This document shows positions 14,001 through 56,500 of a DNA stretch of 64,000 nucleotides, one piece after another; within the stretch, counting starts at the first letter, position 1; each line of letters starts with the position of its first letter. Source of the DNA: Schmidtea polychroa (lineage: Eukaryota); assembly GCA_044892525.1 (NCBI GenBank), contig CM097888.1:1922001-1986000 (forward strand), read 5' to 3'. The notes beneath the pieces were generated by a model. It saw only the letters and a list, made by a program, of their open reading frames with translations, searched no databases and was not told where the DNA came from. Both the position numbers and the translations under genes were made by a program.

Positions 14001-16093
14001 ATTTTATGTTGTCCATCTCTCTAATCTGTCCATCTATCTCTATTTTATCTTGTCCATCTCTGATCTGTCCATCTATCTCTATTTTATCTTCTCTACCCCT
14101 ATTTAATCTGTCCATCTATCTCTTTTTTATCTTGTCCATCTCTCTAATCTGTCCATCTATCTCTATTTTATCTTGTCTATCTCTAATCTGTCCATCTATC
14201 TCTTTTTTATCTTGTCCATCTCTCTAATCTGTCCATCTATCTCTATTTTATCTTGTCTATCTCTAATCTGTCCATCTATCTCTATTTTATCTTGTCCATC
14301 TCTGATCTGTCCATCTATCTCTATTTTATCTTCTCTACCCCTATCTAATCTGCCCATCTATCTCTTTTTTATCTTGTCCATCTCTCTAATCTGTCCATCT
14401 ATCTCTATTTTATCTTGTCCATCTCTATCAAATCTGTCCATCTATCTCTATTTTATCTTGTCCATCTCTATCAAATCTGTCCATCTATCTCTATTTTATC
14501 TTGTCCATCTCTCTAATCTGTCCATCTATCTCTATTTTATCTTGTCCATCTCTAATCTGTCCATCTCTCTCTATTTTATCTTGTCCATCTATCTCTATTT
14601 TATCTTGTCTATCTCTAATCTGTCCATCTATCTCTATTTTATCTTCTCTATTTATCTATCTAATCTGTCTATCTATCTCTATTTTATCTTGTCCATCTCT
14701 ATCAAATCTGTCCATCTATCTCTATTTTATCTTGTCTATATCAAATCTATATATCTATCCAGTATCTAGCCTATTATCATCATATAGAAAGATACAGATA
14801 TAGAGATAGAAATAGTCAAAGATAGACATATAGGTATAGATAGACAGAGAGATAGATGACATTAAGTGCACTGGAACATAATTGCTATACAATACTTATG
14901 GAAACCCCTACGATTACCGCATATATCAAATATAATGTTTCACAGAAATAAAATGGCATTAAAATCCACATATAACCAGTAAATAACACAAAATCACATA
15001 TTCAATATTTGCTCATAATCAGTGCAACGGATGTTGTAGTAATGCCATGTAAATTGTACGCTAAAGTTCCCAATTAATGGCCAGCACAAGTTGATCCACA
15101 TATAGCAATAGTCACACCAAGTAGCCATAAATAACATTGGAACGGAAGGAATTAATATGTACCATTATTTGTGAATGAGCATAGGACAATGTTATTCATT
15201 GATTAATGTTGTGATTCATTTCTAAGCCCGATGCTATCATAGAGTACACATGCCGGTTCCTTAATGCTCAATCGGAACCTCCTGATTCATGACAATGGGG
15301 CAGAATTCATTATAAATCAATTTCATTAGGTTCCTAGTCAATAATATCAGTAAATAGTAGCGGATAATAAGGTCATATGAGGCTATATGAGGTCATTGCG
15401 ATTGATCAGGTCAAACAGATGATCTCACTGATTGCCTATTTATGCAAATGGATCTAATTCAGTTACTCGCGTCCTTATGAAATATATCTCACAAATCAAT
15501 TGTTACTTTTTTAAAGCTCGGAATAATTTACTGTGAGCTTTATAGAATATTTTCCAAACATAAATAATTGATTTAACAAACAACTCAAATTGGTGTTTAC
15601 ATATGCATTTTGTTCATTTCATAATTTGTCACTCAATAACCACAGGCTAGCATTATTCCTATCGTTGTTCTTGTGCTTCTTCCAAATGCAGGAACCTACA
15701 GGAAACCAGCAGATAATTATATCGGACCCTTCCGTATTACTAGCTGGGCGCTTGACATTTTTGTTCTTCTACACCTCTTTTATCGATTTGCCTTCTGAAA
15801 TATTCACTAGAAATTAATGACGAAAATAAGTTTCTTTCTAATGGAAGCAACAAAGAGCAAATATTAATAAAACTGCCCAATAAACAAAGTAAATACGGTA
15901 CATTGTTTAAATCAGTTTTGAATAAATTAAGGAGTAGGAATTGCGCTATTGCAATATTTTATCTCATTTCCGGTCAGATTTCCAATAGGTTCATGACTTT
16001 TTGCCGATAACTATCTCTCCTATTAATCTGTTCTAGCAGCATTTGATGAACTATAACAAAATGATATTTGCTATAGGTATTCCTCTTAATATA

Positions 16094-16157
<64 letters not shown>

Positions 16158-16228
16158 ATTAAAAATAATGGCAATAATAAAAATATAATAATAAAAAAAT
16201 AATAACCAATAAAAATAAATCAATAATA

Positions 16229-16263
<35 letters not shown>

Positions 16264-18094
16264 TAAAATAATCTCTATATATAAAAAAGCTAATGGTCCC
16301 CTCCATCCGAATTTTACTTTAATAAGGAGATGTTTGTACGAGAAATTTTTTTTAATTTTTAATTTTTTCTTTTTTTTCTTTTGAACTTCTATATTACTTT
16401 GAAACGGTTTATGCTATTATCTTTTATCATAGTTATGTAAACATATTAATAAACTGAATCTTACTCCTGTCCAAGAATACCCTGGATATTTACTTTAACA
16501 TTAACCCCACGTTCTAACGGGGTTGGTGAAGCGAAACGAGCAGAGGCAGAGCCTCTAGTATATTAATAAAAATAACAATAATAAAAATATAATAAATAAT
16601 AATAAGCAGTAATTATTTTAAATAATTAATAATAATAAATGTATAATAATTATCTTCTTCCCGAACCTACATTTCTATCTTTCTTTTATTTCTTTATTCT
16701 TACTTCCCATTGGTTATACATATAATACAATATAATGATATGCTTTATTTTTCTGAATTTTTAAAAATTTCAGTCAAAATTAAAATAAATATCATTTAAA
16801 ATTCAAAATGACACCAACTAAAATTTTTAAATTTTTAAAGCTTCAATAATTAGCCCTAGAAGCCTACTCCAATAAAATATTTTAAAATATTCTAAATAAA
16901 ACCTCAATAACTATTTATATACGCTATTTAAACATTTCAATAAATGTGTCAATCTTGATTTTTAAATCCTCTTTTGAAAGCATATTTCCTAAAATCTCTA
17001 TATTATTTTAATTATTACTTTTTTTATTATTTATTATATTGTTAATATATTGTCAGCCAGCCAACAGATCAAATTGATGCTTTCATTGATTTCTTTAGTG
17101 TTGAATTTTTCTTCTTTGAATCTGACATTTTTTCTATGTTTCCATTAGCTATGATTTCGATTGAAATATTTTTTCTTTCCTCTTTTGGCTGACATGGTTA
17201 GAGATGTTTGTTTACCGAGGATGTTCCACCAGGATCTAGATGTTCTTTTTACTCTTTGGTGCAAGGTCCTGAGGGTACTTCCAATGTAGATTTCATTGCA
17301 TACATTGCACGTGACGCAATAGACGATGTTTTTCTAAAGCACATATCTTTCGGTGTCTGGCAGTTTTTCATTGTGCAATTGTTTTCTCTATTTATGTTGC
17401 CTGCCAGAGCCCTTCTCAATGTCCAAGATTTATGTGCTATCCGAATTGGGAGACCGGTACGTTTAAGTTCTTTCAGGATCTTGAAGTCGAGTATGTCACT
17501 GATGAATGGGATATTCAGATAGAAATATTTCTGATTCTTTTGTGTTAATTCCCTAGATCTTCTTGGGGTAGAATTCATTCTTTTTTTAAATACATTATTT
17601 GCAGCAAAAGGCTTAAATTATTACTTTATTGTTTTAAATAAATGCTGCTANNNNNNNNNNNNNNNNNNNNNNNNNNNNNNNNNNNNNNNNNNNNNNNNNN
17701 NNNNNNNNNNNNNNNNNNNNNNNNNNNNNNNNNNNNNNNNNNNNNNNNNNNNNNNNNNNNNNNNNNNNNNNNNNNNNNNNNNNNNNNNNNNNNNNNNNNN
17801 NNNNNNNNNNNNNNNNNNAAATATTTTTCAATAATAATAAATATTAATCGATAATAATAAATAAATAATAATCAATAATAATAAATATTAATCAATAATA
17901 TAAAATAAATATTAGTCAAGAATAATAATAATAAAAAAATCAATGATTATAATCAATGATTATAATCAATAATAATAAATAAATATTAATCAAGAATAAT
18001 AATAATAATAATAATCAATAAAAATAAATAAAAATTTTTCAATAATAACCAATAATAATAAATATTAATCAATAATATAAAATAAATATTAGTC

Positions 18095-18132
<38 letters not shown>

Positions 18133-18546
18133 TAATAATAATAATAAATAAATCCATGCATCAAAATCGCGTAAAATGGAAATAAATATGCACATGATAT
18201 CAGCACATAAGTAAGTAAAAGAGTAACATCTGCTAATTCCAGTATCAGTGTAAAATATTCCATTCGCGCTTACTATTGGAATGCTGACATAAAAACCGAC
18301 TCGTTTTTGTCCAGCCAGCCACCAGTTGGCATTTGAATCCCACTCGGTCCTAAAGTGAACCATTTACCAAATAATCTAGTTGACTGTAATCATTCGGTAG
18401 GCATGTTGTTGACTGTGCAACGCGCATAACTTCATAAATGGATTAATACTTTTAATATCGAATCTATACACCAATAACAGCGCCTATTGCGTGACTTTCC
18501 AATGTTCTTATTTGTTTATGAAACTTTGTTGTATTGAAATGCATTG

Positions 18547-18581
<35 letters not shown>

Positions 18582-20225
18582 CGCTATTATACAATATAGA
18601 TTTTGAGGTGCAATTTACTGCATTATGGATATTATGGAATTAAATCAATAAATTGACATTTTTTCTCAATTCCAATCTAATAAAATTGTTTCCCCATTAT
18701 AAAATTATCCTCGTGTGTACCAAATAAACCAAAATTTATTGATGAATACTCGATAAAAACTGTGCCGATTATTTTAAATTAATGGAATTATTAACCCTAA
18801 CCATAACAGGTCCCGGTGCAAATTGCCCCTTCCCAAGCTACGTCTCTATTATCATTCAAAGCAGCGTTTCCCAGAATGAAATATGTTAAAAACAAGACAA
18901 TTGAGTCTAGAATACGGCTAATGGTCTCCAGCGAGTCCTGTGACTTTGCAAGTCTCTCTGCAAAAATGCAAGAGCAAGGAAATTATTAATGGCGATGTTT
19001 TCCAAACTTCTTGAAACAATTGTTGTAAAACGTTTTTTTGCCCTATATGACGTTACGTAGACATTTTTTACATATGTAGACCTGTAAATTGGATACTGTC
19101 AACTGCTGCACCTTTAAAATCACAGCTTCGTAAGTCTCTAAAAAATCTCTAGCATCAGACCTATTTCATCGAGATTGTATATGCCGATCCTCCACCAAAT
19201 GTTTCTGCTTCTCAATGACCATCGTTTACCAAATTACTTGCACAAGATGTAACGCATCGTACATAGGTGAAACACATAGAACGTTCCAAACAAGACTCAA
19301 CGAACACGTCAAGAGCAAAACCAGCAATTATCACGAACACTGGAAAAAAGTGCACCACCCTTACACGAAACAAAATGCAAAATATTACAAAATGCGTTCA
19401 AAAACTCATTGCAAAGATTAGCCGCTGAGACTCTTTATATCAAAAAACTTAAACCGTCCATCAACATTCAACTAAATTAATATTTAATTATATTTAAAAT
19501 TTAAAATTAAAAAAATATAAAAAAAAATAAAATAAAATATTAAAAGATTAAAAATTTAATTAAATTACAGAATTTAAAATTTTAAAAAAATAGGAAATAT
19601 TATTTGGGTAATTGAAATAAAATATAAATAGAATATAATTAAACCAATAAATTTATTATAAAATACGAAATAAATTTATTTTTCCCCAACAATAATTATT
19701 AAATGTAATGATCAAATTCACTTGAGAAAGGCAGTGCCGAAAATTCGTGAGTATCAACAAGCATCGATATATTACTGATTTATAATCTTCAAGCTCTCTT
19801 TTTAATTTTCGTTTATTGCGTAAAAAGCATCTCCTTCCACTTATGACGTCGATTCATACATCTATTGCGTTTAAAATAATTTCACCATATTTGATAATGT
19901 TAACAATTAATAAAATAGTAATTTCTATTCTATTATTTATTTTTAAATGTTTTACAAGTCATGTTTATATGATTGTGCTTATACATTCTACTAGTGACGA
20001 AATTATAAAATGTTTGCTAGTGTAATCAAAATATTGAACTGATCTGATATAACTAAGAGTAATTGTGAATTTTCGGCACTGCCTTTTTTCAAGTGAAAAA
20101 TAAAAAAGGCAGTGCTGAAAATTCGTGAATATCAAAAACATCGATATATTTCTGGTTTATAGTCTCCAAACTCTCTTTTTAATAAATTCAATGGAAAAAA
20201 ATCAGCGGTGAAATTGGAAAAAAAA

Positions 20226-20310
<85 letters not shown>

Positions 20311-23300
20311 AGAGCCCAGCAGAGTCACCTTTAAAATCTGTGTTGGGGCTGCTGGGGTGTATGTGTGAATTTAAACGTTAAAGATTAATATTAACAACTA
20401 TTATCAAATATAAAAATAATTATTAATTTAACATAAAAAATATAACAAAATGTCTAATTCTCCTCCTAACTTTATTATAACAAAAAAGTAAAATCCTTCA
20501 AAGTGTTCACGAATGTTCATAAATTAACAGTATTGTCGTCCAACATTTCATTTTTGTTACTAATAATTTTCTTATTTCGATTTCATTTTGGATTTTTGAC
20601 TTTTTCAATTGAAATTTTTATTTTTAATAATAACTAGGGGCTCAGGCCCTGTTCGCTTCGCTTCACCAACCCAGTTAGAACTTGGGGTTAATGTTAAAGT
20701 TAATATCCAGGGTATTCTTGAACAGGAGTAAGATTCAGTTTATTAATATGTTTACATAACTATGATAAAAGATAATAGCATAAACCGTTTCTAAGTAATA
20801 TAGAACGATAAGTACAAAAGAATAAATACTTCATAAAAAAAATTAAAAAAGTAAAATTCGGATGGAGGGGACCTTTAGCTTTTTTATATATCGTGGTCTC
20901 ACTGTTGACGAATCTAAAACCTTAAATCCACTGTTTCCCATGGTTCCATAAATCGTTTCTAAAATTTATTTTCATCATAAGTAGTATTAAACTGCTCTTT
21001 ATTATCGCTGAATTTCCCAGATTTGTATATGACTTACGGATCGCGAATTGAACCAATCCATTTAGCAGTATTGCCGCCTTACACGCTTTTTTGGACATTT
21101 TAAGTTAACTGAAAACTGGGAGGGGGGTTTTTAAAAAAGCATTCAAAAAAGGTTCATTGAAAAGCATAAAAATAAATTTTCAATAAAAAAATTCGTAATA
21201 TTTTTCTATTTAAAAAATCCTAAATATATATAAACGTTTCCCCTTTACCCATAATTAAATAATCTGACTGCAGTAACTAATTATAGTTTGTACCACTTTG
21301 TGCTCCCTGAATCCCAAATTCTTGCGACAATATATTGGGTATTGAATGTTTCCCTCGCGTGCTGTATGTCAGATTACATAATCAAGCAGTCATTTGTGAA
21401 TATATTCAATAACGAGGATAACTCATTCAGACTATGACACGTAACCAAGCTCAGAAATTTCTGCAAGAAATGGGTTTCAGTTTGAGTGATTCTATCGGTG
21501 CTCTGGTTAACAATCAAATGGATCTTCCAAAAGCTTTAAATGAGTTGCAGAGTAAATATCGCATGTCAACAAACGGTGCAAATATTTCCAATAACATGTG
21601 CAACCAGCCCCTTTCGTTTAATCGGAACACCGAGAACGTTAATATTGGCCGTATTCCACCGGGCGCTACGATCAACCCCATTGTTGGTCAGAATACGTCG
21701 TCGATCCCATCAATAATGAACTCGAATTTCCCCAACAATATAGATGTGTTTCATTCTGAGATTTCTGATCAGGTTGGAATTGATTCTATTTTTATTAATA
21801 ATTAGTAATTTTGCATTGAATTAATTTCAATAGGTAAATTTGTATTGATTTCCATTAATTTTATAATTAATTTTATAATTGATAATTTTAAATTGATTTT
21901 ATAATTGATAATTGATTTTATAATTGGTAATTATGAATTGATTTGATAATTGATAAATTTTTGAATTGATTTTATTGTAATTGATTAATTTGTATTGATT
22001 CCCAAAAATTTTGTAATTGATTTTTGAATTGATAATTAGGTAAATTAATATTGATTTCCATTAATTCTATAATTGATAATTTTGAATTGATTTGATAATT
22101 GATAAATTTTCATTGATTATATATATATATATATACCTGATCATAGATTTATTAATTAAATTTTTGCTATATGTGAATTAACTGTTGTCGCATCAGTAGA
22201 TTTAGACTTTGGAATTAAGCGATAATTAATCAATATTTCTACATCTATTACAATGTGCATTTGTAACAGAAAAGATGCCGATTTACTCGTAATAACTATA
22301 AATTCATTGGGCGATATTGTTAAAATTATTCGTGCGTATTTCTCCAATATTATTTCTCCAAATCTATATTTATCGATATTATATATTTATTTCATTATTA
22401 GATAATATTGGATCAATAATATTGGTAGAAATCTTTAATTTGCCCATTTTTATCGACTATTTGCCACATATTCAAAAATGGTTTCATCCATATCGATTTC
22501 ATCGACATTTTACTATTTTTGAGTACTAAAACCTCTATAAACTTGTTATTATAGCACTGAGGAGGTAAATGAAAATGAAGATTATTATTTCCTTTCTAAA
22601 TAATATAACTGAATGTTTTTATCGATTATTACTGATTTGTCAAATATAAAATTATTTATATATTTGGTGTACGAAAGAAAAATTGATTCAAAGATATTGA
22701 TTCTATTATGAATATATATCCCAAAGCAGAGGTAAACATTTTATTATCAACCGAAATTATTAAAAACAAAAGAAGATATTCAAAATTTGAGCTCATAAAA
22801 GTGCAAATATATTTAGAGGAATTAAAAGGGGGTAGAATAGGACTGGAGAAAGCAAATTGCACCAAACTGAAAAATAATTATGAATAAGATGTTTCAACCA
22901 AACCTAATCAAAGACAAATTTACTATTGGATTAATCTTGCTGGGCTACTCCAACACTTTTAATCCATCCTCACTGAACTTATTAAGTGTAATTTTAGATC
23001 GATGACAAGGAGTGTTATTGTTATTCTGATGAAAGATGACATTGATACTTTCTGGAACTACTATATCTTTTATCAAATCATAGTAATTGTCACCATTAAG
23101 AGTTGTTGAACCACGCGTAAAGCTAGCTTTTTACCATAAATTATGGCACCCAATACCATAAATGATCCTCCACCACAAATATTTCTTTTGAATCCTTTAG
23201 ATGATGCCAATATTACCGTCTTTTTCCGAAAATAAGACACTGTCTTACTATTTTTTTGGGTCTAAAATACGCGCTAGTGCTTACTTTCGGTGGAGGGCCA

Positions 23301-26300
23301 AAATAAAAGTATATTTATATATTTTTATTTAATATTTATTTTACACAGAATGCAGAAATTTAAATTTATTCAATTACAGTCATGTCATCTTCTTCTGGAA
23401 CATCGCCATAAATAAAATTCTGAATTATATTCTGATTTTCTATCAAACCCATTTCCTGTTGAATCATTGGTCCGAATCTCTCATGTCTTGCGATATAGCT
23501 ATCGTTAAATGAATACTTCTTGTCTAAGTAGCCTGTTCGTAGTGCATTGGAAACATCACTATCAGTTATTTTGTCCCATGATTTTTTTTACCCAATTCAC
23601 AACTTCTTGTAAGCCTGGTTTTACAAAATTAGCTCCATGATTTCTCACCATTCTGTTTTCAATATATTTATTGATTTCCATCCGCAAATGATCCTTGAAT
23701 GGCTTGCTTATTGCAATGTCAAGTGTCTGGAGGTAATTTAGAGCGGTGAGAACTGGCCGAATCCCAAATTAATAAACCTCTATTCTGACCCCTCAACAGT
23801 GGAGGCAGCATAAAATCAATCCACTTTCTTATAACTGCTTGGGTGCACCAGCCCTTTTCACTTTCAATGACATAAATTCCTGAAACACGTTGAATCTGGT
23901 TTTTTGGCGATACTTTCTTGCCATCTAGACGAATCGCTAAAATGCAGGCAACACGTGCACTATCGTAACCGGTAGAAGGAACGTAAATTGTCTAGGAAGC
24001 CGTAGTGGTGAACTGTTGTTTGAGCTCATTAGCCTAGGAGTACCGCGGTCTCATCCATCAATCGATGCCATCAACAAAAAACTTAAATGCAAGAGCACGT
24101 TTAACAACTTTATTGTCTTCCAGCTTAAACAATGTTATTGTATTATTGTATTAATTAAATATTGACTATGAATTAGTAAAGTTATCGATGTCTTTTTCGA
24201 TATATTTAATGATTTATGGTAAATTTTTTTATAAATTATAATGTTAATTGAAAAGAAATCAGAAGTGAAAATTGTAAGTGAAAAATTTGTGCAAAATAAA
24301 TTTTTACAGTGAATAAAATTTTTTATTTTTTAATATTCTAGATAATTAAATCGCTTCAAAAATATAAATTTATATTTGTCAAAAAATCATAAAAATCACA
24401 ATTTAAATTAAATTTAATAAAATAATTTATAATTAATATTGTTGAATATCTATTTTCTAAAAAGAATATAATACGAGAGAAAATTTCACGATAAATAGCA
24501 ATTGTAATTTTTCCTTTGAAGGCCAAAATCTTTACTGTAAACCGTTTACTTTTTAATTTCCTTTAAATTCTTGCATGTTTGAAAAATCTGAAAATAAATT
24601 AAAAATAGAAAAAGTTAAATGATGAAAATTTTAGTGTTGTGGATTTGAGTCGTTACAAAGTAGCATAACGTCGAGTTGATCTTAAAACTTTTCGTTACAG
24701 TCCTTTTTTATCTTAAGTCAAGAAGGGTTTCAATAAAGACTTACAAAAGGCATTCTGGATGGTAATAGTTGATGTCGAAACTCTAGTGGATAATTTGTTT
24801 GATTGTCAATAATATTAAAATTCATTTTAAGCGTATTTTTGTTAGTTGGAGCTCGAATTATTTACTTGTCTATTCTTATAGTCATTGTTTAATGCATTTA
24901 AACATTCTCTTCATTTTCTATCGTTTAACAAGCTTTTCACTTTAAATTGAAATCTATAGAGCTCCAGGACTAAGTGTTAACTTGTAACCTACCATATTGG
25001 ACGAACGAATTCTACCCTAAAAGTTCTAAACCGCCAGGAAGTCAACTCGAAAGTTAATAAACTAAATTCAAATATCTACATAGACAATTTCAAACCAATC
25101 CTGTAATGTTGTTTGAGGTTATGACCATGAGAAATTAGACCTGAAAGCTATCCATTCTATGACATACAATGACACGGCTGATAAGTTTCTATTCTTTATT
25201 ACTATGCACCATTGGATTATATTGTATATTGTTATCAATTCACCAATTACAAACACAATATTAAATGATATTTGATCGCTACTTGCAAGTTAACGCGAGA
25301 TTATGTTTGTGTTTGCGATAAAATTTAAATGTCAAGGTATTCTCTAGTAACCATAATAGGTAGTGTAGTGGTGATAATAAGTACTGGTCAACACTGAACT
25401 GATTAAGCCTTATTTCATATTCTGCACAGCACTTTATTGTGTATCGCAAATATTTGCATTTTTAATTCATTCATTAAACTTCCTTCCGAGAATTTATTCA
25501 CTAATCAAATGCTATTATAATAGTCATTACTTCTATTACGAGGTCCCTATGATGTGGAAATGTATTTATATTTCCTATAAAAATTAGCTAATTCTTTTTT
25601 ATTATTTTGATTCCATATATGCTTCAATAGACAAAAGTCACTGTTATGTTAATTCATCGCCTTTTTCACATAATTAAAATCATAAGTTCTATTTTGATTA
25701 CATGCATTTCATTTTTGGTACTAGATAATTTCTATTTTACACTTTTCTAATGCACTTTCCTTTATGGATTAAATCACTTAACCGATTTTGAGCAACAGAA
25801 TAATTTCATATAAGGCAACAATTCATCCCAGATTTACTAATTCTGTTTCCCTATTGAACGCGGGACTACCCGTACGCCTTTATCCAGAAATGCACAACCT
25901 AAAAAGTGATAGTTATAGTAAAGCACGACCACATATCGAGGTGTAAACAAACAATTTTATTCCAATTGAGTATATTGTAAGTATTCTTTAAAGGGAGAGG
26001 AAGATCAGCTTTGGTGGCACTTTTGGTTTACTGTGACGAAAAGAGGAATTTTCTAGTAAGATAGATAGGTAAGCTTGAGACAATTCTATTTTCGGTTGTT
26101 TTTAGCCATAGACCTCGAGTTCCTCAACATTTTAGATTCATTCATCATACTAAAGAGAAAGGACTGATATTATTACAATAAATCATTACAATAGATACTT
26201 GAGGAAATATGAATGAAGATAGACAGTATTTTTATATTATTACATCTACATTTTTCTTTTATCATTTACTGCTTAGTAATTTATATAAAATAGTATTATT

Positions 26301-39699: not shown

Positions 39700-40720
39700 A
39701 ATAAATTCCTACACAGAAACGGATACCGAGGTGACGACAGTGAAAGAATGAATTCTACCCCAAGAAGATCTAGGGAGTTGACACAAAAGAATCAGAAATA
39801 TTTCAATCTGAATATCCCAGTGACATACTCGACTTCAAGATCCTGAAAGAACTTAAACGTACCGGTATTACAATAAGGAAAGCACATAAATCTTGGACAC
39901 TGAGAAGGGCTCTGACAGGCAACTTAAATAGAGAAAACAATTGCACAATGAAAAACTGCCAGACATCGAAAGATATGTGCTTTAGAAAAAACATCGTCTA
40001 TTGCGTCACGTGCAATGTATGCAATAAAATCTACATTGGAAGTACACTCAGGACCTTGCACCAAAGAGTTAAAGAAAACCTAGATCCTGGTGGAACATCC
40101 TCGTTGGGCAGATATCTCCGGGAAGGTCAGAAAGGTCAGAAAGAAAAAATATTTCAATCGAAATCATAGCTAATGGAAACATCCAAAAGAAAAATGTCAG
40201 AATCAAAGTAGCAATTCTCATCATAAACAGACAGCCAAAGATCAACACTAAAGAAGAAATCAATGAAATCATGAATTTGATCTGTTGTCAATGACCTTGA
40301 GAATAACTGACAATATATAAAGAAATTTAAAAAAAATATAATAAATTAAAAAGTAATAATTAAAATTATATAAAAAATTTTAGGAAATATACTTTCAAAA
40401 AATAGGATTAAAAATCAAAATTGACACATTTATTGAAATATTTAAATAACGTTTATAAGTAGTTATTGGAGGCTTAATTTTAAAATATTTTGAAATATTT
40501 TATTGGGCTTCTAGAAGCTAATTATAGAAGCTTTATAGAAAAAATTTAGAAATTTCTAGTTTGTGTCATTTTGAAATTTTAAATGATATTTATTTTATTT
40601 TATTTTTAATTTATTTTCAATAAAATTTTTAAAATTTTTAATAAATAAAAAAATAAATAAATTCATAAAACGAAAGTATATATTATATTTATAACCAATG
40701 AGAATTAAGAGAAAGTCTAA
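39700..40720 (+). mobile_element. Penelope-like element 3' fragment (GIY-YIG), same family as 16620-17580
   Basis: MKNCQTSKDMCFRKNIVYCVTCNVCNKIYIGSTLRTLHQRVKE; shared AT-rich 3' tail. Confidence 0.8.
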
Positions 40721-44500: not shown

Positions 44501-47500
44501 CAAATTGATTCATAATACTCGTTACAATATTGTCGAAACTTTGATCTGAAAATATGTAATCTGACGAATCTGGTCTAAAATCCAACGGCAGCAATCCACC
44601 AAATAAATTTGATATTAGTTGGCCAAAAACACTATTTCTGTTATCAGGATCTCTTGGAGTAATAAAAAAGGAACCATCAGTTTCCTTTGTAGTATTTCCG
44701 ACAGGAACATGACGAATAATATGAGAAACATTCAAGGCATCATCATCACTTTCCATTGAGTTATCAGATTTAATTCTTTCAATAAATCCATCATTGCACG
44801 TCACGCATTTACCATCGTGAGATATGTGAACGTCCCTGTTGCATTTATGATAATAGTAATTATCTGTATTAATCGAAGCCAAAAAACGCAGAGAGACGCG
44901 AGACATGAACTGATAATTAACCAACATGTGAAACGGAGAAAAAATCATCGCTTGCTTCTTGGACCTGTTAATACAACGCAAAGAAAAACACTATGAGACA
45001 GAGATTTATAGAAAACCAACTGATACTGGTCTCTATACTTCTTCCGAAAGTTTTTGTGAATTCAAGTATAAAAGAAATATGGTGAAGGGGTTGATTTATC
45101 GTGCATGGTCTTTGTCTTCTACTTTTGTAAATTCAGTATCAATTGTTAACAAATTGGTTGAATTGTTAAGAACCATCGCAACCCGTCGCCTACTCACACT
45201 ACATACAATACCATACTAATGACCACAACATCTACTACTACTACTGAGATAATTTCTATGTATTATAAATGGAACAACTCCTTTGTTTTATAACTTTCAT
45301 ATCATTTGCATACCATATATTAAAAATGTCCAATAGTTGAAATTTTTCTAATGTTAATTGAAGGGTTAATTGGAATTTGAAATAAAGCACAAATTAAAAT
45401 AAAATAAACCCCAAAATGATCTGAATAGTAATATCAATTATTATTTACTGCATTTCATATCAAACAAATCATTAACCGATTTTTATGAAAATTTCAACTT
45501 ATACCAAACAAAGTATCGATTCGATATGTAACAAAAATAAATGTTAAAATTTAATTTTTGTAAAAATAAAAAAGTCGCATATACTTGGATTTGAACTTCC
45601 ACCGAACGAGATAATCAAAAATCAAAAATTGAACTCACNNNNNNNNNNNNNNNNNNNNNNNNNNNNNNNNNNNNNNNNNNNNNNNNNNNNNNNNNNNNNN
45701 NNNNNNNNNNNNNNNNNNNNNNNNNNNNNNNNNNNNNNNNNNNNNNNNNNNNNNNNNNNNNNNNNNNNNNNNNNNNNNNNNNNNNNNNNNNNNNNNNNNN
45801 NNNNNNNNNNNNNNNNATAATAATCAATAATAATAAAAATAATCAATAATAATAATAATAATATAAAATGATGATTTCTTGGTAGCAGCATTTATTATCT
45901 GAAACAATAAAATGATAATTAAAGCCTTTTGCTGCAAATAATGTATTTAATGAAAAAATTTTCGACTATAAGATAGTCCTTGTCAATCTCCTCTGATTGA
46001 CCCTTGCTATAATCAAAACTGCATTCATCCATTCTTCCCTAAATGTATTTAATAAAATGAAAATATTTTGTGATCACTTTTTTATTAATAATTATAATTC
46101 AAAAGCGAGCTAACTTATAATTAATCGAAATCAATTAAAAATAATTTTAATGCATAAATTCTTAAAAATTCTGATAAATAATGAAACATAAGTTATAATA
46201 CAAATGTTGAATAAAAGTAATATTTAAGAGATTGAATAATGATGTCATATCTATATAAAATCAAAATTCTAGTTTTAAAATTTACTTAAAATTTAAAATC
46301 TTGAAAGCAATTTCTAAAATGGCTGATATTATAAATGAACTATAATTGATGAACACACCAACCTGTATTATAAAATTTTTATTTGATACGAACGGGTATA
46401 TTTCTTGTCAAGTTTAAGCACTCATTGGGCGCATCGCGTGTATAGTCACTGTTTATTCACTCAAGGTATTTGATGGATATTATTAGATGGGCGCACAGTT
46501 GAAATAACAACATTTGAATGAATTACAAACATTTATCATAAAAGAGAGGTACAATTAAGTGCTATGAAATGCCTAAGGACACTCAAGACAAACAAGATAA
46601 GGAATCACTTCTCAAAAATATTAAAATAACAATCAAATGTTTACTTAGTAGTGATTCCAATTATTTAATATTCATAGGTCCATTTCCGCTATTATTATTT
46701 ATAGGCCCATTTCTGTGATTATTATTCATAGGCCCATTTCTGTGATTATTATTCATAGGTCCATTTCTGTGATTATTATTCATTGGCCCATTTCCGCTAT
46801 TATTATTTATAGGCCCATTTCTGTGATTATTATTCATAGGCCCATTTCTGTGATTAATATTCATTGGCCCATTTCTGTGATTAATATTCATAGGCCCATT
46901 TCTGTGATTATTATTCATAGGCCCATTTCTGTGATTATTATTCATTGGCCCATTTCTGTGATTATTATTCATTGGCCCATTTCTGTGATTAATATTCATA
47001 GGCCCATTTCTGTGATTATTATTCATTGGCCCATTTCTGTGATTATTATTCATTGGCCCATTTCTGTGATTAATATTCATAGGCCCATTTCTGTGATTAT
47101 TATTCATTGGCCCATTTCTGTGATTATTATTCATAGGCCCATTTCTGTGATTATTATTCATTGGCCCATTTCTGTGATTATTATTCATTGGCCCATTTCT
47201 GTGATTAATATTCATAGGCCCATTTCTGTGATTATTATTCATTGGCCCATTTCTGTGATTAATATTCATAGGCCCATTTCTGTGATTATTATTCATTGGC
47301 CCATTTCTGTGATTATTATTCATAGGCCCATTTCTGTGATTATTATTCATTGGCCCATTTCTGTGATTATTATTCATTGGCCCATTTCTGTGATTAATAT
47401 TCATAGGCCCATTTCTGTGATTATTATTCATTGGCCCATTTCTGTGATTATTATTCATTGGCCCATTTCTGTGATTAATATTCATTGGCCCATTTCTGTG

Positions 47501-50500
47501 ATTATTATTCATTGGCCCATTTCTGTGATTATTATTCATAGGCCCATTTCTGTGATTATTATTCATTGGCCCATTTCTGTGATTATTATTCATTGGCCCA
47601 TTTCTGTGATTAATATTCATAGGCCCATTTCTGTGATTATTATTCATAGGCCCATTTCTGTGATTATTATTCATTGGCCCATTTCTGTGATTATTATTCA
47701 TAGGCCCATTTCTGTGATTATTATTCATTGGCCCATTTCTGTGATTATTATTCATTGGCCCATTTCTGTGATTAATATTCATAGGCCCATTTCTGTGATT
47801 ATTATTCATTGGCCCATTTCTGTGATTATTATTCATTGGCCCATTTCTGTGATTATTATTCATTGGCCCATTTCTGTGATTATTATTCATTGGCCCATTT
47901 CTGTGATTATTATTCATTGGCCCATTTCTGTGATTATTATTCATTGGCCCATTTCTGTGATTAATATTCATTGGCCCATTTCTGTGATTAATATTCATAG
48001 GTTCACCATTTCCAATCATGACATAAAATTGTTGTTTTTGATGCAAAATGCCTTTGTATATTTATTTTCTGTTTGCAGGAATTTTTTCCAATTCTCTCCG
48101 CGTTGAATGGCGGTAAAATAGAAATCGCAAAATTGCTCATTGAATATAATTGTGACATTAACTGTGTAACTCGAACTGTAAATTTCAATTTTATATTCAT
48201 TTTATTCTTAACTGGGCTGTTGTGTAGCACCAAATGAGGCCTATCCATTTTGCAAGCTCCCTCGGATTTACTGACATCGTGCAAATGCTTATCGATAGGC
48301 AATGCGATATTGAATGTGAAACCATTTTAGTAAAGCTGTTAACTAATTCTCAATGTGTAAATGATAAAAATGATATAGAAAAAGACACCCATGTTTATGG
48401 CCTGCTCAAACAATAACAGGGAAATTGTGAGGCTATTAATTGCCAACCAATGCAATATCAATTGCCCCAATGATTATGTTTGATTGGGATATTTCTTTGT
48501 AAATGCAGTTATAATGTTATAATTATTTAGAATGAGCAGCCGATTCATGAGACTTGTAAGAAAGGGTTTGTAGAGGTCGTCCAACTATTGCTTGACAAGG
48601 AGTGCGATATTACCTGTGTGGATAATAAGGTTGTCGATTGAGTTCTTGTTTATGTAATGCCATAAGGCGTGCATAAGCATGTCATACCCTCCAATGAGCT
48701 AAGGTGACAACATAAGGATGCTTGTTATGCAGTCAGTGAAGGTTCTAATCCTTACGCAATGAATACTATACCCAGTGGCGCAGCTACCATATAGCAAGGG
48801 CAAGCAATGCACAGGGGCCCACAAGGCAGTGGCGCAGCTACCATATAGCAAGGGCAAGCAATGCACAGGGGCCCACAAGGCAGTGGCGCAGCTACCATAC
48901 AGCAAGGGCAAGCAATGCACAGGGGCCCACAAGGCAGTGGCGCAGCTACCATATAGCAAGGGTAAGCAATGCACAGGGCCTACAAGGCAGTGGCGCAGCC
49001 AGCATATAGCAAGGGTAAGCAATGCACAGGGGCCCACAAGGCAGTGGCGCAGCTACCATACAGCAAGGGCAAGCAATGCACAGGGGCCCACAAGGCAGTG
49101 GCGCAGCTACCATATAGCAAGGGTAAGCAATGCACAGGGCCTACAAGGCAGTGGCGCAGCCAGCATATAGCAAGGGTAAGCAATGCACAGGGGCCCACAA
49201 GGCAGTGGCGCAGCTACCATATAGCAAGGGTAAGCAATGCACAGGGGCACACAAGGCAGTGGCGCAGCTACCATATAGCAAGGGTAAGCAATGCACAGGG
49301 GCACACAAGGCAGTGGCGCAGCTACCATACAGCAAGGGCAAGCAATGCACAGGGGCCCACAAGGCAGTGGCGCAGCTACCATATAGCAAGGGCAAGCAAT
49401 GCACAGGGGCCCACAAGGCAGTGGCGCAGCTACCATATAGCAAGGGTAAGCAATGCACAGGGGCCCACAAGGCAGTGGCGCAGCTACCATACAGCAAGGG
49501 CAAGCAATGCACAGGGGCCCACAAGGCAGTGGCGCAGCTACCATATAGCAAGGGTAAGCAATGCACAGGGCCTACAAGGCAGTGGCGCAGCCAGCATATA
49601 GCAAGGGTAAGCAATGCACAGGGGCCCACAAGGCAGTGGCGCAGCTACCATATAGCAAGGGTAAGCAATGCACAGGGGCACACAAGGCAGTGGCGCAGCT
49701 ACCATATAGCAAGGGTAAGCAATGCACAGGGGCACACAAGGCAGTGGCGCAGCTACCATACAGCAAGGGCAAGCAATGCACAGGGGCCCACAAGGCAGTG
49801 GCGCAGCTACCATATAGCAAGGGCAAGCAATGCACAGGGGCCCACAAGGCAGTGGCGCAGCTACCATATAGCAAGGGTAAGCAATGCACAGGGGCCCACA
49901 AGGCAGTGGCGCAGCTACCATATAGCAAGGGTAAGCAATGCACAGGGGCCCACAAGGCAGTGGCGCAGCTACCATATAGCAAGGGTAAGCAATGCACAGG
50001 GCCTACAAGGCAGTGGCGCAGCCAGCATATAGCAAGGGTAAGCAATGCACAGGGGCCCACAAGGCAGTGGCGCAGCTACCATATAGCAAGGGTAAGCAAT
50101 GCACAGGGGCACACAAGGCAGTGGCGCAGCTACCATACAGCAAGGGTAAGCAATGCACAGGGGCACACAAGGCAGTGGCGCAGCTACCATACAGCAAGGG
50201 TAAGCAATGCACAGGGGCCCACAAGACAGTGGCGCAGCTACCATACAGCAAGGGCAAGCAATGCACAGGGGCCCACAAGGCAGTGGCGCAGCCAGCATAC
50301 AGCAAGGGCAAGCAATGCACAGGGGCCCACAAGGCAGTGGCGCAGCCAGCATACAGCAAGGGTAAGCAATGCACAGGGGCCCACAAGGCAGTGGCGCAGC
50401 TACCATACAGCAAGGGCAAGCAATGCACAGGGGCCCACAAGGCAGTGGCGCAGCTACCATATAGCAAGGGCAAGCAATGCACAGGGGCCCACAAGGCAGT

Positions 50501-53500
50501 GGCGCAGCTACCATATAGCAAGGGTAAGCAATGCACAGGGGCCCACAAGGCAGTGGCGCAGCTACCATATAGCAAGGGTAAGCAATGCACAGGGGCCCAC
50601 AAGGCAGTGGCGCAGCTACCATATAGCAAGGGTAAGCAATGCACAGGGGCCCACAAGGCAGTGGCGCAGCCAGCATATAGCAAGGGCAAGCAATGCACAG
50701 GGGCCCACAAGGCAGTGGCGCAGCTACCATACAGCAAGGGCAAGCAATGCACAGGGGCCCACAAGGCAGTGGCGCAGCTACCATATAGCAAGGGCAAGCA
50801 ATGCACAGGGGCCCACAAGGCAGTGGCGCAGCTACCATATAGCAAGGGTAAGCAATGCACAGGGGCCCACAAGGCAGTGGCGCAGCCAGCATATAGCAAG
50901 GGTAAGCAATGCACAGGGGCCCACAAGGCAGTGGCGCAGCCAGCATATAGCAAGGGTAAGCAATGCACAGGGGCCCACAAGGCAGTGGCGCAGCCAGCAT
51001 ACAGCAAGGGTAAGCAATGCACAGGGGCCCACAAGGCAGTGGCGCAGCTACCATATAGCAAGGGTAAGCAATGCACAGGGGCACACAAGGCAGTGGCGCA
51101 GCTACCATACAGCAAGGGTAAGCAATGCACAGGGGCCCACAAGGCAGTGGCGCAGCTACCATATAGCAAGGGTAAGCAATGCACAGGGGCCCACAAGGCA
51201 GTGGCGCAGCCAGCATATAGCAAGGGTAAGCAATGCACAGGGGCCCACAAGGCAGTGGCGCAGCTACCATATAGCAAGGGCAAGCAATGCACAGGGGCCC
51301 ACAAGGCAGTGGCGCAGCCAGCATATAGCAAGGGTAAGCAATGCACAGGGGCCCACAAGGCAGTGGCGCAGCCAGCATACAGCAAGGGTAAGCAATGCAC
51401 AGGGGCCCACAAGGCAGTGGCGCAGCCAGCATATAGCAAGGGTAAGCAATGCACAGGGGCCCACAAGGCAGTGGCGCAGCCAGCATATAGCAAGGGTAAG
51501 CAATGCACAGGGGCCCACAAGGCAGTGGCGCAGCCAGCATACAGCAAGGGCAAGCAATGCACAAGGCCCACAAGGCAGTGGCGCAGCCAGCATATAGCAA
51601 GGGTAAGCAATGCACAGGGCCCACAAGGCAGTGGCGCAGCTACCATATAGCAAGGGTAAGCAATGCACAGGGCCCACAAGGCAGTGGCGCAGCTACCATA
51701 TAGCAATGGTAAGCAATGCACAGGGCCCACAAGGCAGTGGCGCAGCCAGCATATAGCAAGGGTAAGCAATGCACAGGGCCCACAAGGCAGTGGCGCAGCT
51801 ACCATATAGCAAGGGTAAGCAATGCACAGGGCCCACAAGGCAGTGGCGCAGCCAGCATACAGCAAGGGTAAGCAATGCACAGGGGCACACAAGGCAGTGG
51901 CGCAGCCAGCATATAGCAAGGGTAAGCAATGCACAGGGGCCCACAAGGCAGTGGCGCAGCCAGCATATAGCAAGGGTAAGCAATGCACAGGGGCCCACAA
52001 GGCAGTGGCGCAGCCAGCATATAGCAAGGGTAAGCAATGCACAGGGGCCCACAAGGCAGTGGCGCAGCCAGCATACAGCAAGGGTAAGCAATGCACAGGG
52101 GCCCACAAGGCAGTGGCGCAGCTACCATATAGCAAGGGTAAGCAATGCACAGGGGCACACAAGGCAGTGGCGCAGCTACCATATAGCAAGGGCAAGCAAT
52201 GCACAGGGGCCCACAAGGCAGTGGCGCAGCCAGCATATAGCAAAGGTAAGCAATGCACAGGGGCCCACAAGGCAGTGGCGCAGCCAGCATATAGCAAGGG
52301 TAAGCAATGCACAGGGGCCCACAAGGCAGTGGCGCAGCCAGCATACAGCAAGGGTAAGCAATGCACAGGGGCCCACAAGGCAGTGGCGCAGCCAGCATAT
52401 AGCAAGGGTAAGCAATGCACAGGGGCCCACAAGGCAGTGGGGCAGCCAGCATATAGCAAGGGCAAGCAATGCACAGGGCCCACAAGGCAGTGGCGCAGCC
52501 AGCATATAGCAAGGGTAAGCAATGCACAGGGCCCACAAGGCAGTGGCGCAGATACCATATAGCAAGGGTAAGCAATGCACAGGGCCCACAAGGCAGTGGC
52601 GCAGCCAGCATACAGCAAGGGTAAGCAATGCACAGGGGCCCACAAGGCAGTGGCGCAGCCAGCATATAGCAAGGGCAAGCAATGCACAGGGGCCCACAAG
52701 GCAGTGGCGCAGCCAGCATATAGCAAGGGTAAGCAATGCACAGGGGCCCACAAGGCAGTGGCGCAGCCAGCATACAGCAAGGGTAAGCAATGCACAGGGG
52801 CCCACAAGGCAGTGGCGCAGCTACCATATAGCAAGGGTAAGCAATGCACAGGGGCACACAAGGCAGTGGCGCAGCTACCATATAGCAAGGGCAAGCAATG
52901 CACAGGGGCCCACAAGGCAGTGGCGCAGCCAGCATATAGCAAGGGTAAGCAATGCACAGGGGCCCACAAGGCAGTGGCGCAGCCAGCATATAGCAAGGGT
53001 AAGCAATGCACAGGGGCCCACAAGGCAGTGGCGCAGCTACCATATAGCAAGGGTAAGCAATGCACAGGGCCCACAAGGCAGTGGCGCAGCCAGCATATAG
53101 CAAGGGTAAGCAATGCACAGGGCCCACAAGGCAGTGGCGCAGCTACCATATAGCAAGGGTAAGCAATGCACAGGGCCCACAAGGCAGTGGCGCAGCTACC
53201 ATATAGCAAGGGCAAGCAATGCACAGGGGCCCACAAGGCAGTGGCGCAGCCAGCATATAGCAAGGGTAAGCAATGCACAGGGGCCCACAAGGCAGTGGCG
53301 CAGCCAGCATATAGCAAGGGTAAGCAATGCACAGGGGCCCACAAGGCAGTGGCGCAGCCAGCATATAGCAAGGGCAAGCAATGCACAGGGGCCCACAAGG
53401 CAGTGGCGCAGCTACCATATAGCAAGGGTAAGCAATGCACAGGGGCACACAAGGCAGTGGCGCAGCTACCATATAGCAAGGGTAAGCAATGCACAGGGGC

Positions 53501-56500
53501 CCACAAGGCAGTGGCGCAGCTACCATATAGCAAGGGTAAGCAATGCACAGGGGCCCACAAGGCAGTGGCGCAGCTACCATATAGCAAGGGTAAGCAATGC
53601 ACAGGGGCACACAAGGCAGTGGCGCAGCCAGCATATAGCAAGGGTAAGCAATGCACAGGGGCCCACAAGGCAGTGGCGCAGCCAGCATATAGCAAGGGTA
53701 AGCAATGCACAGGGGCACACAAGGCAGTGGCGCAGCCAGCATATAGCAAGGGTAAGCAATGCACAGGGGCCCACAAGGCAGTGGCGCAGCTACCATACAG
53801 CAAGGGCAAGCAATGCACAGGGGCCCACAAGGCAGTGGCGCAGCCAGCATATAGCAAGGGTAAGCAATGCACAGGGGCCCACAAGGCAGTGGCGCAGCCA
53901 GCATATAGCAAGGGTAAGCAATGCACAGGGGCCCACAAGGCAGTGGTGCAGCTACCATATAGCAAGGGTAAGCAATGCACAGGGCCCACAAGGCAGTGGC
54001 GCAGCTACCATATAGCAAGGGTAAGCAATGCACAGGGGCCCACAAGGCAGTGGCGCAGCTACCATATAGCAAGGGTAAGCAATGCACAGGGCCTACAAGG
54101 CAGTGGCGCAGCCAGCATATAGCAAGGGTAAGCAATGCACAGGGGCCCACAAGGCAGTGGCGCAGCCAGCATATAGCAAGGGTAAGCAATGCACAGGGGC
54201 CCACAAGGCAGTGGCGCAGCTACCATACAGCAAGGGCAAGCAATGCACAGGGGCCCACAAGGCAGTGGCGCAGCTACCATATAGCAAGGGTAAGCAATGC
54301 ACAGGGGCCCACAAGGCAGTGGCGCAGCTACCATATAGCAAGGGTAAGCAATGCACAGGGGCCCACAAGGCAGTGGCGCAGCTACCATATAGCAAGGGTA
54401 AGCAATGCACAGGGCCCACAAGGCAGTGGCGCAGCTACCATACAGCAAGGGTAAGCAATGCACAGGGGCCCACAAGGCAGTGGCGCAGCTACCATACAGC
54501 AAGGGTAAGCAATGCACAGGGGCCCACAAGGCAGTGGCGCAGCCAGCATATAGCAAGGGCAAGCAATGCACAGGGGCCCACAAGGCAGTGGCGCAGCTAC
54601 CATACAGCAAGGGTAAGCAATGCACAGGGGCCCACAAGGCAGTGGCGCAGCTACCATACAGCAAGGGTAAGCAATGCACAGGGGCCCACAAGGCAGTGGC
54701 GCAGCTACCATACAGCAAGGGTAAGCAATGCACAGGGGCCCACAAATTGTAAAAAAAAATTCTAAAAAAAATCCTCTACAGATTCCTTTAATCTCTCCTT
54801 GCTTCTGTTTCTCTAAACGCCTTATTATTTTCTCGTAAAGTTTCATTTCTCTATTTTACTTTTCTTTACAACTTCAGTTTTCGTCTTGTTTTGTAAATTC
54901 TGTCTATTTCTCTTGTTTAAAACTTCTGTCTTCACTTTTCTATTCTTTTAAGTCCAGTGGAGTTTCTAAATATTGACTTCAATTTGAATACCCTTTCCCG
55001 CACATTTCCATGATCCTCTTTAATTCTCCTAATATCTCTGACAGCTGTCGAGATATGTAATATCTTCTAGCTTCCCCTGTGATCTCTTTTCCTTATTTTA
55101 ACCAGGCTATAGAGATATGCCAATTTAATTTTGTTTTCGTTTCCTCTTCCTCGCTTTGTACTTTTTAAATAAAAATGTCCTTGTCATGTTTCGTTATTTG
55201 ATTATTTGATGTTTTCCATTCTTTGCTATTTTTTTTATTTTATCAACTCTTCCAATCGCTCCTACTTTCCATTATTCCGGAGCAACACACATTTTAATAA
55301 TTATTTCATTTTATTATTTAGGTATCCTCAACAGTATTGATAAATGTCAATTTGATTATCCTATCAATTTTTGCTTTCTCTACATTCGTTCACCTTCTAA
55401 AGCATTTATTAATTGTCATTATCTAGCAGCAATTTATGTTATATGTAAATATGGACGTTTTGTTTTACTTTGATTAGACTAGTTTATTGAAATTTAATTA
55501 AATAATTACACGAATATCTATTTTCCTGTTCTCTAACCAACGATTGTTATGAAATAAATATTGAATATAATGCGCTTTGACAGTAATATAAAATGCTAAT
55601 CAAATATCCCAGATGATGCAGCCTATTCATATTGCAAGTCAAAATGGCCGAGTAGAAATAGTAAAAAAATTAATAGCAAAAGGAGCCGATGTAAATTGCA
55701 TGAGCATATATGTAATTGTAATTCTTTATCCCATTATGAATTTTTACCACCTCAATCAGGCACGGACTCCTCTTTATCTAGCATCAGAAAATGGCCATTA
55801 TGATGTTACGAAGGTGCTAATTGATAATGGGTGCAATATCGAATGTCAATCAAGAAAGGTTAATCGATATCGAGTGAAACTCATAATAACAATGATGTGA
55901 ACATTTAGAAATGGAGGCCGATCCACAATGCCTGTCAACACGGTTTTCATGAGATAGCTCAACTTCTTGTCGACAGTCACTGCTCTATTGATACCGAGAA
56001 TGACAATGTTAATTATTTTCTAAAATTTATATTTGTTTAAAGCAGGTAATTAGTAGCTTGTTCCATAAATCCCTATGGAACAACAAATTTTAATGTGAAG
56101 ATTGCACTATAAGATTTTTGAGAATTATCGATTGGTTTTACCTTTTCTTAATTCCTGGGAGAACCAAGAAACTTTTCGAGGATTTTATTTCGGAATCTTC
56201 TTAGTTGAATCACGACGCAACCTTTTTGTTAAGGATGTCTCGACTAAATATGTCGCGTTCTCAAGATAGCCCAAAAATATTGATTGATTACACTTAATTC
56301 CTAGGAGAACCAAGAAATTTTTCGAGATCTTTATTAAAGAATCTTCTTAGTCGAATCAAGACGCAACTTTTTCGTGAAGGATGTCTCGACTAAATATGCT
56401 TGGTTCCCAATGTTCCAAAATTTATTCCTTAAAAACGCAAAATTTATATTGAAAAGAAGTCTTTTCGTTGATTTCATATAAATTAATCTGTGTCGACAAA

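Follow-up and report, generated by a model that had tools for sequence, protein, structure and literature searches.

A minimal U3:A8 hammerhead motif from the terminal repeat of a high-copy family of Penelope-like retroelements

The window, by which we mean the whole 64,000-nucleotide stretch of DNA that was analysed, harbors at positions 19716-19752 what is very probably a minimal type I hammerhead ribozyme with a U3:A8 core pair, located in the terminal repeat of an abundant family of Penelope-like retroelements (PLEs). Its cutting, predicted to follow C19746, would be slow and would need a dimer or the help of a protein, and the copy in the window is likely to be inert. The initial annotation had proposed that a minimal hammerhead of type I lies at a Penelope-like element's end, and this proposal is supported by the anatomy of the motif, by its GIY-YIG endonuclease context and by a comparison of related families. 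The hammerhead reading of the motif is thus well supported.

Anatomy of the motif and its host element

The letters and hammerhead layout first described for this site were confirmed, both in the sequence, which reads ATTCAC TTGAGAA A GGCAGTGCC GAA AATT C GTGAGT, and in the predicted minimum-energy fold, which contains helices I and II. The core is UUGAGA, with the changes C3U and G8A, plus one extra A, as had been stated. This core follows the order Y3 U4 G5 A6 N7 R8 A9 ... G12 A13 A14 A15.1 ... U16.1 H17, with a Watson-Crick 3:8 pair that is here U3:A8, and it is closed by helix I, in which one compensatory change separates two families, and by helix II with its G10.1-C11.1 pair. The additional nucleotide that separates position 9 from 10.1 is A19729, helix III is represented by a palindromic remnant (AAUU here and AUAU in the sister family), and the whole motif lies in the terminal repeat of an element with a reverse transcriptase (RT) and a GIY-YIG domain. 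Hammerhead numbering places the predicted cut 3' of C17 (19746). The features are collected in Table 1.

Table 1. Features of the PLE copy, its hammerhead motif and the neighbouring insertion
Feature	Position in window	Strand	Basis
5'-truncated PLE copy: ORF end, 3' UTR, hammerhead, tail	about 19100-19806	+	BLASTN to genomic copies L004, L014, L043
Remnant of the GIY-YIG endonuclease (frameshifted), C-terminus and its stop codon	19221-19479	+	translations, Pfam
AT-rich 3' UTR / pseudo-LTR part before the hammerhead	19480-19713	+	sequence; common to L004, L008, L013, L025
5'-end pile-up of other genomic copies (this copy continues upstream)	19714-19716	+	87 sampled copies; run X3 contigs
Helix I, 5' strand	19716-19721	+	fold, pair counts
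Core strand U3 U4 G5 A6 G7 A8 A9	19722-19728	+	sequence, family counts, described trait
Extra A between position 9 and helix II	19729	+	sequence, family counts, described trait
Helix II, 3 bp, G10.1-C11.1, 3-nt loop	19730-19738	+	fold; 89.9% of cells paired
G12 A13 A14, palindromic AAUU (A15.1..U16.1), C17 at 19746	19739-19746	+	sequence; AAUU/AUAU double change between families
Helix I, 3' strand	19747-19752	+	fold
Tail to the family's first common 3' end (about +60 from cut)	19753-19806	+	3' ends of sampled copies
Separate fold-back insertion, same family	20064-20230, limits approximate	.	pattern matches 20067-20090 (-), 20101-20124 (+); sequence

Helix I comprises 6 bp, to which the predicted fold adds 4 further pairs past a 3-nt bulge, and in RNA folding both helices have pair probabilities of 0.95-1.0. 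The short helix II and its loop offer no evident loop-loop contact, and AAUU alone forms no stable duplex (computed at +2.2 kcal/mol). The folding energy is ordinary (z -0.80, with 46 of 200 shuffles folding equally well); as it is not above chance, the case for a hammerhead is built on the ordered core motif, together with the context and the comparison of families. Among the 10 matches that Rfam covariance models returned for positions 15000-25000 of the window, at E up to 10, there was no hammerhead family. A competing hairpin, in which an upstream UCAA pairs with UUGA of the core, was rejected for RNA, where its pair probability is 0.0; the same pairing may still matter in a DNA fold-back.

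The surrounding element copy matches L004 at 87% over 749 columns (BLASTN). Its frame at 19221-19388 matches Pfam GIY-YIG with 29.9 bits (cut-off 22.6), and the motif lies 267 nt downstream of the last GIY-YIG codon. A longer copy, L043, harbors RT, GIY-YIG, 3' UTR, motif and tail, its RT matching Pfam RVT_1 at E 6e-4, below the cut-off. The natural 5' junction is found in L060 and others, in which the motif is followed by about 120 nt and then by the ORF start. With GIY-YIG upstream in L043 and the ORF start downstream in L060, the motif therefore sits at the repeat/ORF junction, which is the known place of PLE hammerheads. A non-LTR retrozyme, composed of noncoding head-to-tail tandem units of 170-400 nt with a hammerhead each, was rejected as the host, since the motif follows a GIY-YIG ORF remnant and the short copies are solitary or fold-back, with no tandem arrays.

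In the neighbouring fold-back, an inverted minus-strand piece, ending near the cut site, is joined to a plus-strand copy without the 5' strand of helix I and without U3-G5. There is thus no intact same-strand cis partner near 19716-19752, because the nearest one (20101) is without half the core. The copy at about 19100-19806 is probably an inert, 5'-truncated insertion.

Other elements were observed elsewhere in the window. A second, different Penelope-like remnant with a GIY-YIG-like frame lies at 17200-17650 on the minus strand, and beside this frame is the plus-strand tail of a third U3:A8 family, in a stretch that reaches masked bases. A further GIY-YIG remnant is found at 39993-40082 (plus strand), and an open stretch of about 125 codons at 21420-21800 (plus strand) is host-exon-like. 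The region 48900-54800 is GC- and A-rich with many overlapping long frames, and is probably a tandem repeat.

Abundance and comparison between families

The 781-Mb genome contains 3,136 exact matches to a 20-mer of the motif and none to its reversed control. A 24-mer pattern is found 4 times in the 64-kb window at up to 3 mismatches, where 0 are expected. The majority core in 64 sampled copies is UUGAAAA plus A, although truncation and slips in runs of A lower the figures at the 5' end. Position 7 is A in 61 of these 64, so that G7 of the copy in the window is a rare change at a free position. The extra nucleotide is also A in most copies sampled (60/64 in this family and 33/33 in a second family, one row of the second set belonging to the first family). 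Genome-wide, a U3:A8 pattern in which position 7 is not A gave 386 matches against 17 for the control, and a C3:G8 pattern 5,153 against 210.

These motifs fall into several families. The sister family has the U3:A8 core, helix I ACAC/GUGU and the palindrome AUAU; a third U3:A8 family in the same genome has a different helix I and a different helix II, of 6 bp; and several further families are C3:G8. GIY-YIG is found 340-470 nt upstream of the motif in the family of the 19716-19752 copy and 360-435 nt upstream in the main C3:G8 family, and in the sister-family loci examined no ORF was found next to the motif.

Between the family in question and its sister, one helix I pair changes from U-A to A-U and the palindrome from AAUU to AUAU, with U3:A8 kept. 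In a hand-picked set of ungapped copies, 11 from the first family and 12 from the sister family, 89.1% of 276 cells pair, compared with 25-60% for slid structures. Only two compensatory events separate these two closest families, and the 2 double-change pairs do not exceed the shuffle mean of 3.2. In stem I, one pair is compensatory between families, and the outermost helix I pair is broken in 12/12 sister-family rows. The proposed test of stem I covariation across copies is weak in itself, because dispersed copies decay neutrally and only the between-family comparison is informative. Core identity between copies of the two families is 19/25 and 21/25, against 60/111 and 57/111 in the tail, the former being partly built in because the sister family was found via the core pattern.

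Double changes preserve the palindrome in two family pairs (AAUU/AUAU and AUAUAU/AUUAAU), and its reading as a remnant of helix III is supported. Likewise, the view of U3:A8 as a compensatory core pair gains support, since some families of this genome have this pair and others C3:G8.

Several related sequences were also noted. The tails of both families keep TGAT(T/C)TATAGTCTT about 25-40 nt past the cut, within a diverged flanking tail, and this sequence may be bound by the protein of the element. A C3:G8 PLE hammerhead family of high abundance (L136-L162, L340-L369) has 1,860 exact 28-mer matches and a palindrome that alternates between ATATAT and ATTAAT. In the window, a copy of the third U3:A8 family, with its 6-bp helix II and U at position 17, lies at about 45950-45990 (minus strand), and a decayed motif at 60860-60960 (plus strand) is intermediate between the first family and its sister, with T at position 7, an AAUU palindrome and a sister-like tail. 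At L117:2283 (plus strand), another repeat family carries a canonical-looking type I hammerhead with a 6-bp helix I and the palindrome ACTAGT.

Ends of genomic copies and competing explanations

Copy ends were sampled at 82 loci. A 24-mer situated downstream of the cut has 3,012 matches, and the loci represent the majority of the 100 that are listed first; near-duplicates and some other rows were excluded, and 87 distinct matches result. Their 5' ends gather at -36..-30 from the cut in 33/87, including 15 at -33 (window 19714), the start of helix I. Another 23 lie between -29 and -4, 16 at +2..+13 and 1 at the predicted cut, with the remaining 14 continuing upstream, where there is a gap in the reference. 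The 33 of 73 ends that fall within 7 positions depart from a flat spread over 70 with p about 1e-14. Loose ends are found at the matching place in 114 contigs of run X3, and an inverted arm lies upstream in 44 of the 87 copies. The 3' ends form two groups, 32/87 at +58..+65 and 28/87 at +115..+124, just before the ATG.

A cleavage footprint in the copy 5' ends was looked for and not seen, in view of the single copy in 87 that starts at the cut. Genome-wide, 153 of 2,984 matches to a downstream 22-mer have a nucleotide other than C at position 17 (and at one far position); inspection by eye of 100 listed rows of these 153 found the upstream motif absent in about 30, from which roughly 2% of the 2,984 are estimated to begin at the cut or next to it. 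Inserted copies extend across the predicted cut rather than start there, so the RNA that is copied would be mostly uncut. Sister-family copies mostly start a few bases before helix I (by eye). The pile-up is nevertheless not a rule in all families, as the main C3:G8 family mostly runs on for at least 45 nt upstream, and an initiator motif common to the sister family was also discarded, being absent there.

The following course of events may be proposed. Selection on active parent elements would have kept the fold, and two motifs would pair through AAUU to rebuild helix III. The element's RT would copy mostly uncut RNA from internal sites about 60 or 118 nt beyond the cut and would frequently stop where helix I starts, to yield the common 90-150-nt units and the fold-back forms. 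The two 3' ends and the uncut copies appear to fit the model of internal start sites on an uncut template in PMC11167929. For the 5'-end pile-up, our best guess is an RNA start at helix I, the rival explanation being a nick or fold-back made by the endonuclease pathway. Among the papers searched, a set that leaves aside Lunse et al. as well as file 1 of the PMC4209133 supplement, none was found to deal with this family or with a clustering of 5' ends at helix I.

A more specific version of this idea, which we put forward tentatively and consider rather unlikely as a whole, is that transcription begins with the ribozyme's first base. The pile of 5' ends at 19714-16 lies 33 nt before the predicted cut, on an initiator-like TCAAATT, and not at the cut itself; the same start is found in U3:A8 sister families and not in the main C3:G8 family. 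The hammerhead, within the first 40 nt of the mRNA, would then work as a switch that depends on dimers and takes off the capped leader at high levels of element RNA, and uncut RNA, copied from two internal start sites, would lead to the mass production of 90-150-nt ribozyme-headed mini-elements.

Another, improbable reading is that the motif descends from a hammerhead and no longer cuts in the cell, having been kept for a non-catalytic role as a protein-binding or promoter element of the terminal repeat. Such a role would suit the 70/87 inserted copies that span the predicted cut and the small genome-wide share of matches that start at or next to it, as well as the anole element described in PMC11167929, the relevant part of which reports ribozyme mutants without effect on insertion in vitro and no RNA reads ending at the site. 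Against it, families with tails that have diverged to 51-54% still retain the catalytic core letters and the 3:8 pair, and the double changes that preserve the palindrome in two family pairs suit catalysis by dimers.

The GTGAGT after the cut could also be read as a splice donor, belonging to a 5' UTR intron of 39 nt that in most copies ends TACTGATTTATAG, such that splicing and cutting compete at one bond. The majority of copies do have donor-, branch- and acceptor-like letters, and the 5' UTR intron of Drosophila virilis Penelope touches its hammerhead, according to passages of PMC4209133 and PMC2377424. This reading is nonetheless very improbable: in the sister family the letters are GTGTAC and the spacing is 30 nt, the copy at 19716-19752 has AA replacing AG, and GUGAGU is already accounted for by its pairing with AUUCAC. 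Moreover, neither the 2 joints from runs X1 and X2 nor the 15 listed of 32 joints skip these 39 nt, an absence that is not proof as these runs are contigs only tentatively taken for RNA. None of the listed data sets is recorded as RNA; X7 does not extend over the motif and X8 and X9 yielded nothing there, which says nothing about expression. Finally, a chance hammerhead likeness in AT-rich repeat DNA, with which the ordinary z-score and the absent Rfam hammerhead match would agree, can be dismissed almost entirely given the correct placement of the motif in a PLE, the excess of U3:A8 pattern matches over the control, the between-family compensatory changes and the identical core in published PLE hammerheads.

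Relation to known hammerheads and significance

A minimal hammerhead motif that is predicted to cut remains the preferred reading, and its closest known counterparts include those of other PLEs. The sections of Cervera and de la Pena (2014; PMC4209133) that bear on this subject describe minimal U3-A8 hammerheads in PLEs of Schistosoma mansoni, with about 1,300 matches to a dedicated descriptor, and count an additional nucleotide, placed after 9 and before 10.1, among the standard traits. These motifs are without a stable helix III, their monomers being inactive and their dimers weakly active. The hammerheads of the S. mansoni Cercyon elements resemble the present motif in being type I, with U3-A8, the extra nucleotide, G10.1-C11.1 and a palindromic 15.2/16.2, and in lying in the PLE terminal repeat of mostly solitary, dispersed copies. 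The PLE-linked supplement row S. mansoni(4) has the core UUGAAAAA, which is also the majority core here. In contrast, helix II here has 3 bp and a 3-nt loop, compared with the 7-8 bp typical for Schistosoma, and helix I has 6 bp with a possible bulged extension, unlike in Cercyon. Within the supplement passages of that paper, the present family is absent, and the single Schmidtea row has a C3-G8 core.

U3-A8 cores are also known from a wider context. As described in part of Perreault et al. (2011; PMC3088659), they occur naturally, with C3-G8 to U3-A8 covariation, and such ribozymes have already been shown to be active in vitro; the parts concerned do not describe them as PLE-linked minimal motifs. 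For small PLE hammerheads whose palindromic stem III is very short, like that of the present motif, dimer cleavage has been described (Lunse, Weinberg and Breaker, RNA Biol 14:1499, as summarised in a portion of the review PMC6765202). Related literature includes PMC8557442 and bioRxiv 10.64898/2026.07.22.740005.

The anole Poseidon element PAc, as treated in the pertinent sections of Frangieh et al. (2024; PMC11167929), provides a parallel for the copy ends. Its hammerhead lies at the repeat/ORF junction, and its RT starts at two internal sites downstream of the hammerhead, in positions that agree with the ends of genomic copies. The RT works mainly on uncut RNA, a likeness to the uncut copies found here, and the hammerhead cuts only with protein present. 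PAc differs in having C3-G8 and an ORF that starts inside helix II, whereas here the pair is U3:A8 and about 124 nt separate the cut from the ATG downstream. The gathering of 5' ends at helix I is seen here and is not reported for PAc in those sections.

The idea that a non-canonical family of this kind would be missed by standard searches stands insofar as Rfam gave no hammerhead match. It fails insofar as such motifs have not been overlooked, U3-A8 minimal hammerheads of PLEs having been published with their own descriptor in the cited part of PMC4209133. The variant is therefore already known, U3-A8 from nature (PMC3088659, in the part cited) and from PLE minimal hammerheads with the extra nucleotide (PMC4209133, likewise). 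The core change and the extra nucleotide are not new, and, on its sequence, the present family is an additional example of PLE hammerheads.

As a ribozyme variant, the motif consequently adds little, given that its core change and extra nucleotide are already in print for PLEs. Its value is as a very small natural test case, with a helix II of only 3 bp, that is present in thousands of copies. The ends of these copies bear on the role of hammerheads in PLEs: they point to integration mostly from uncut RNA and, with 5' ends that gather at the start of the ribozyme, they would make the mapping of start sites directly informative.
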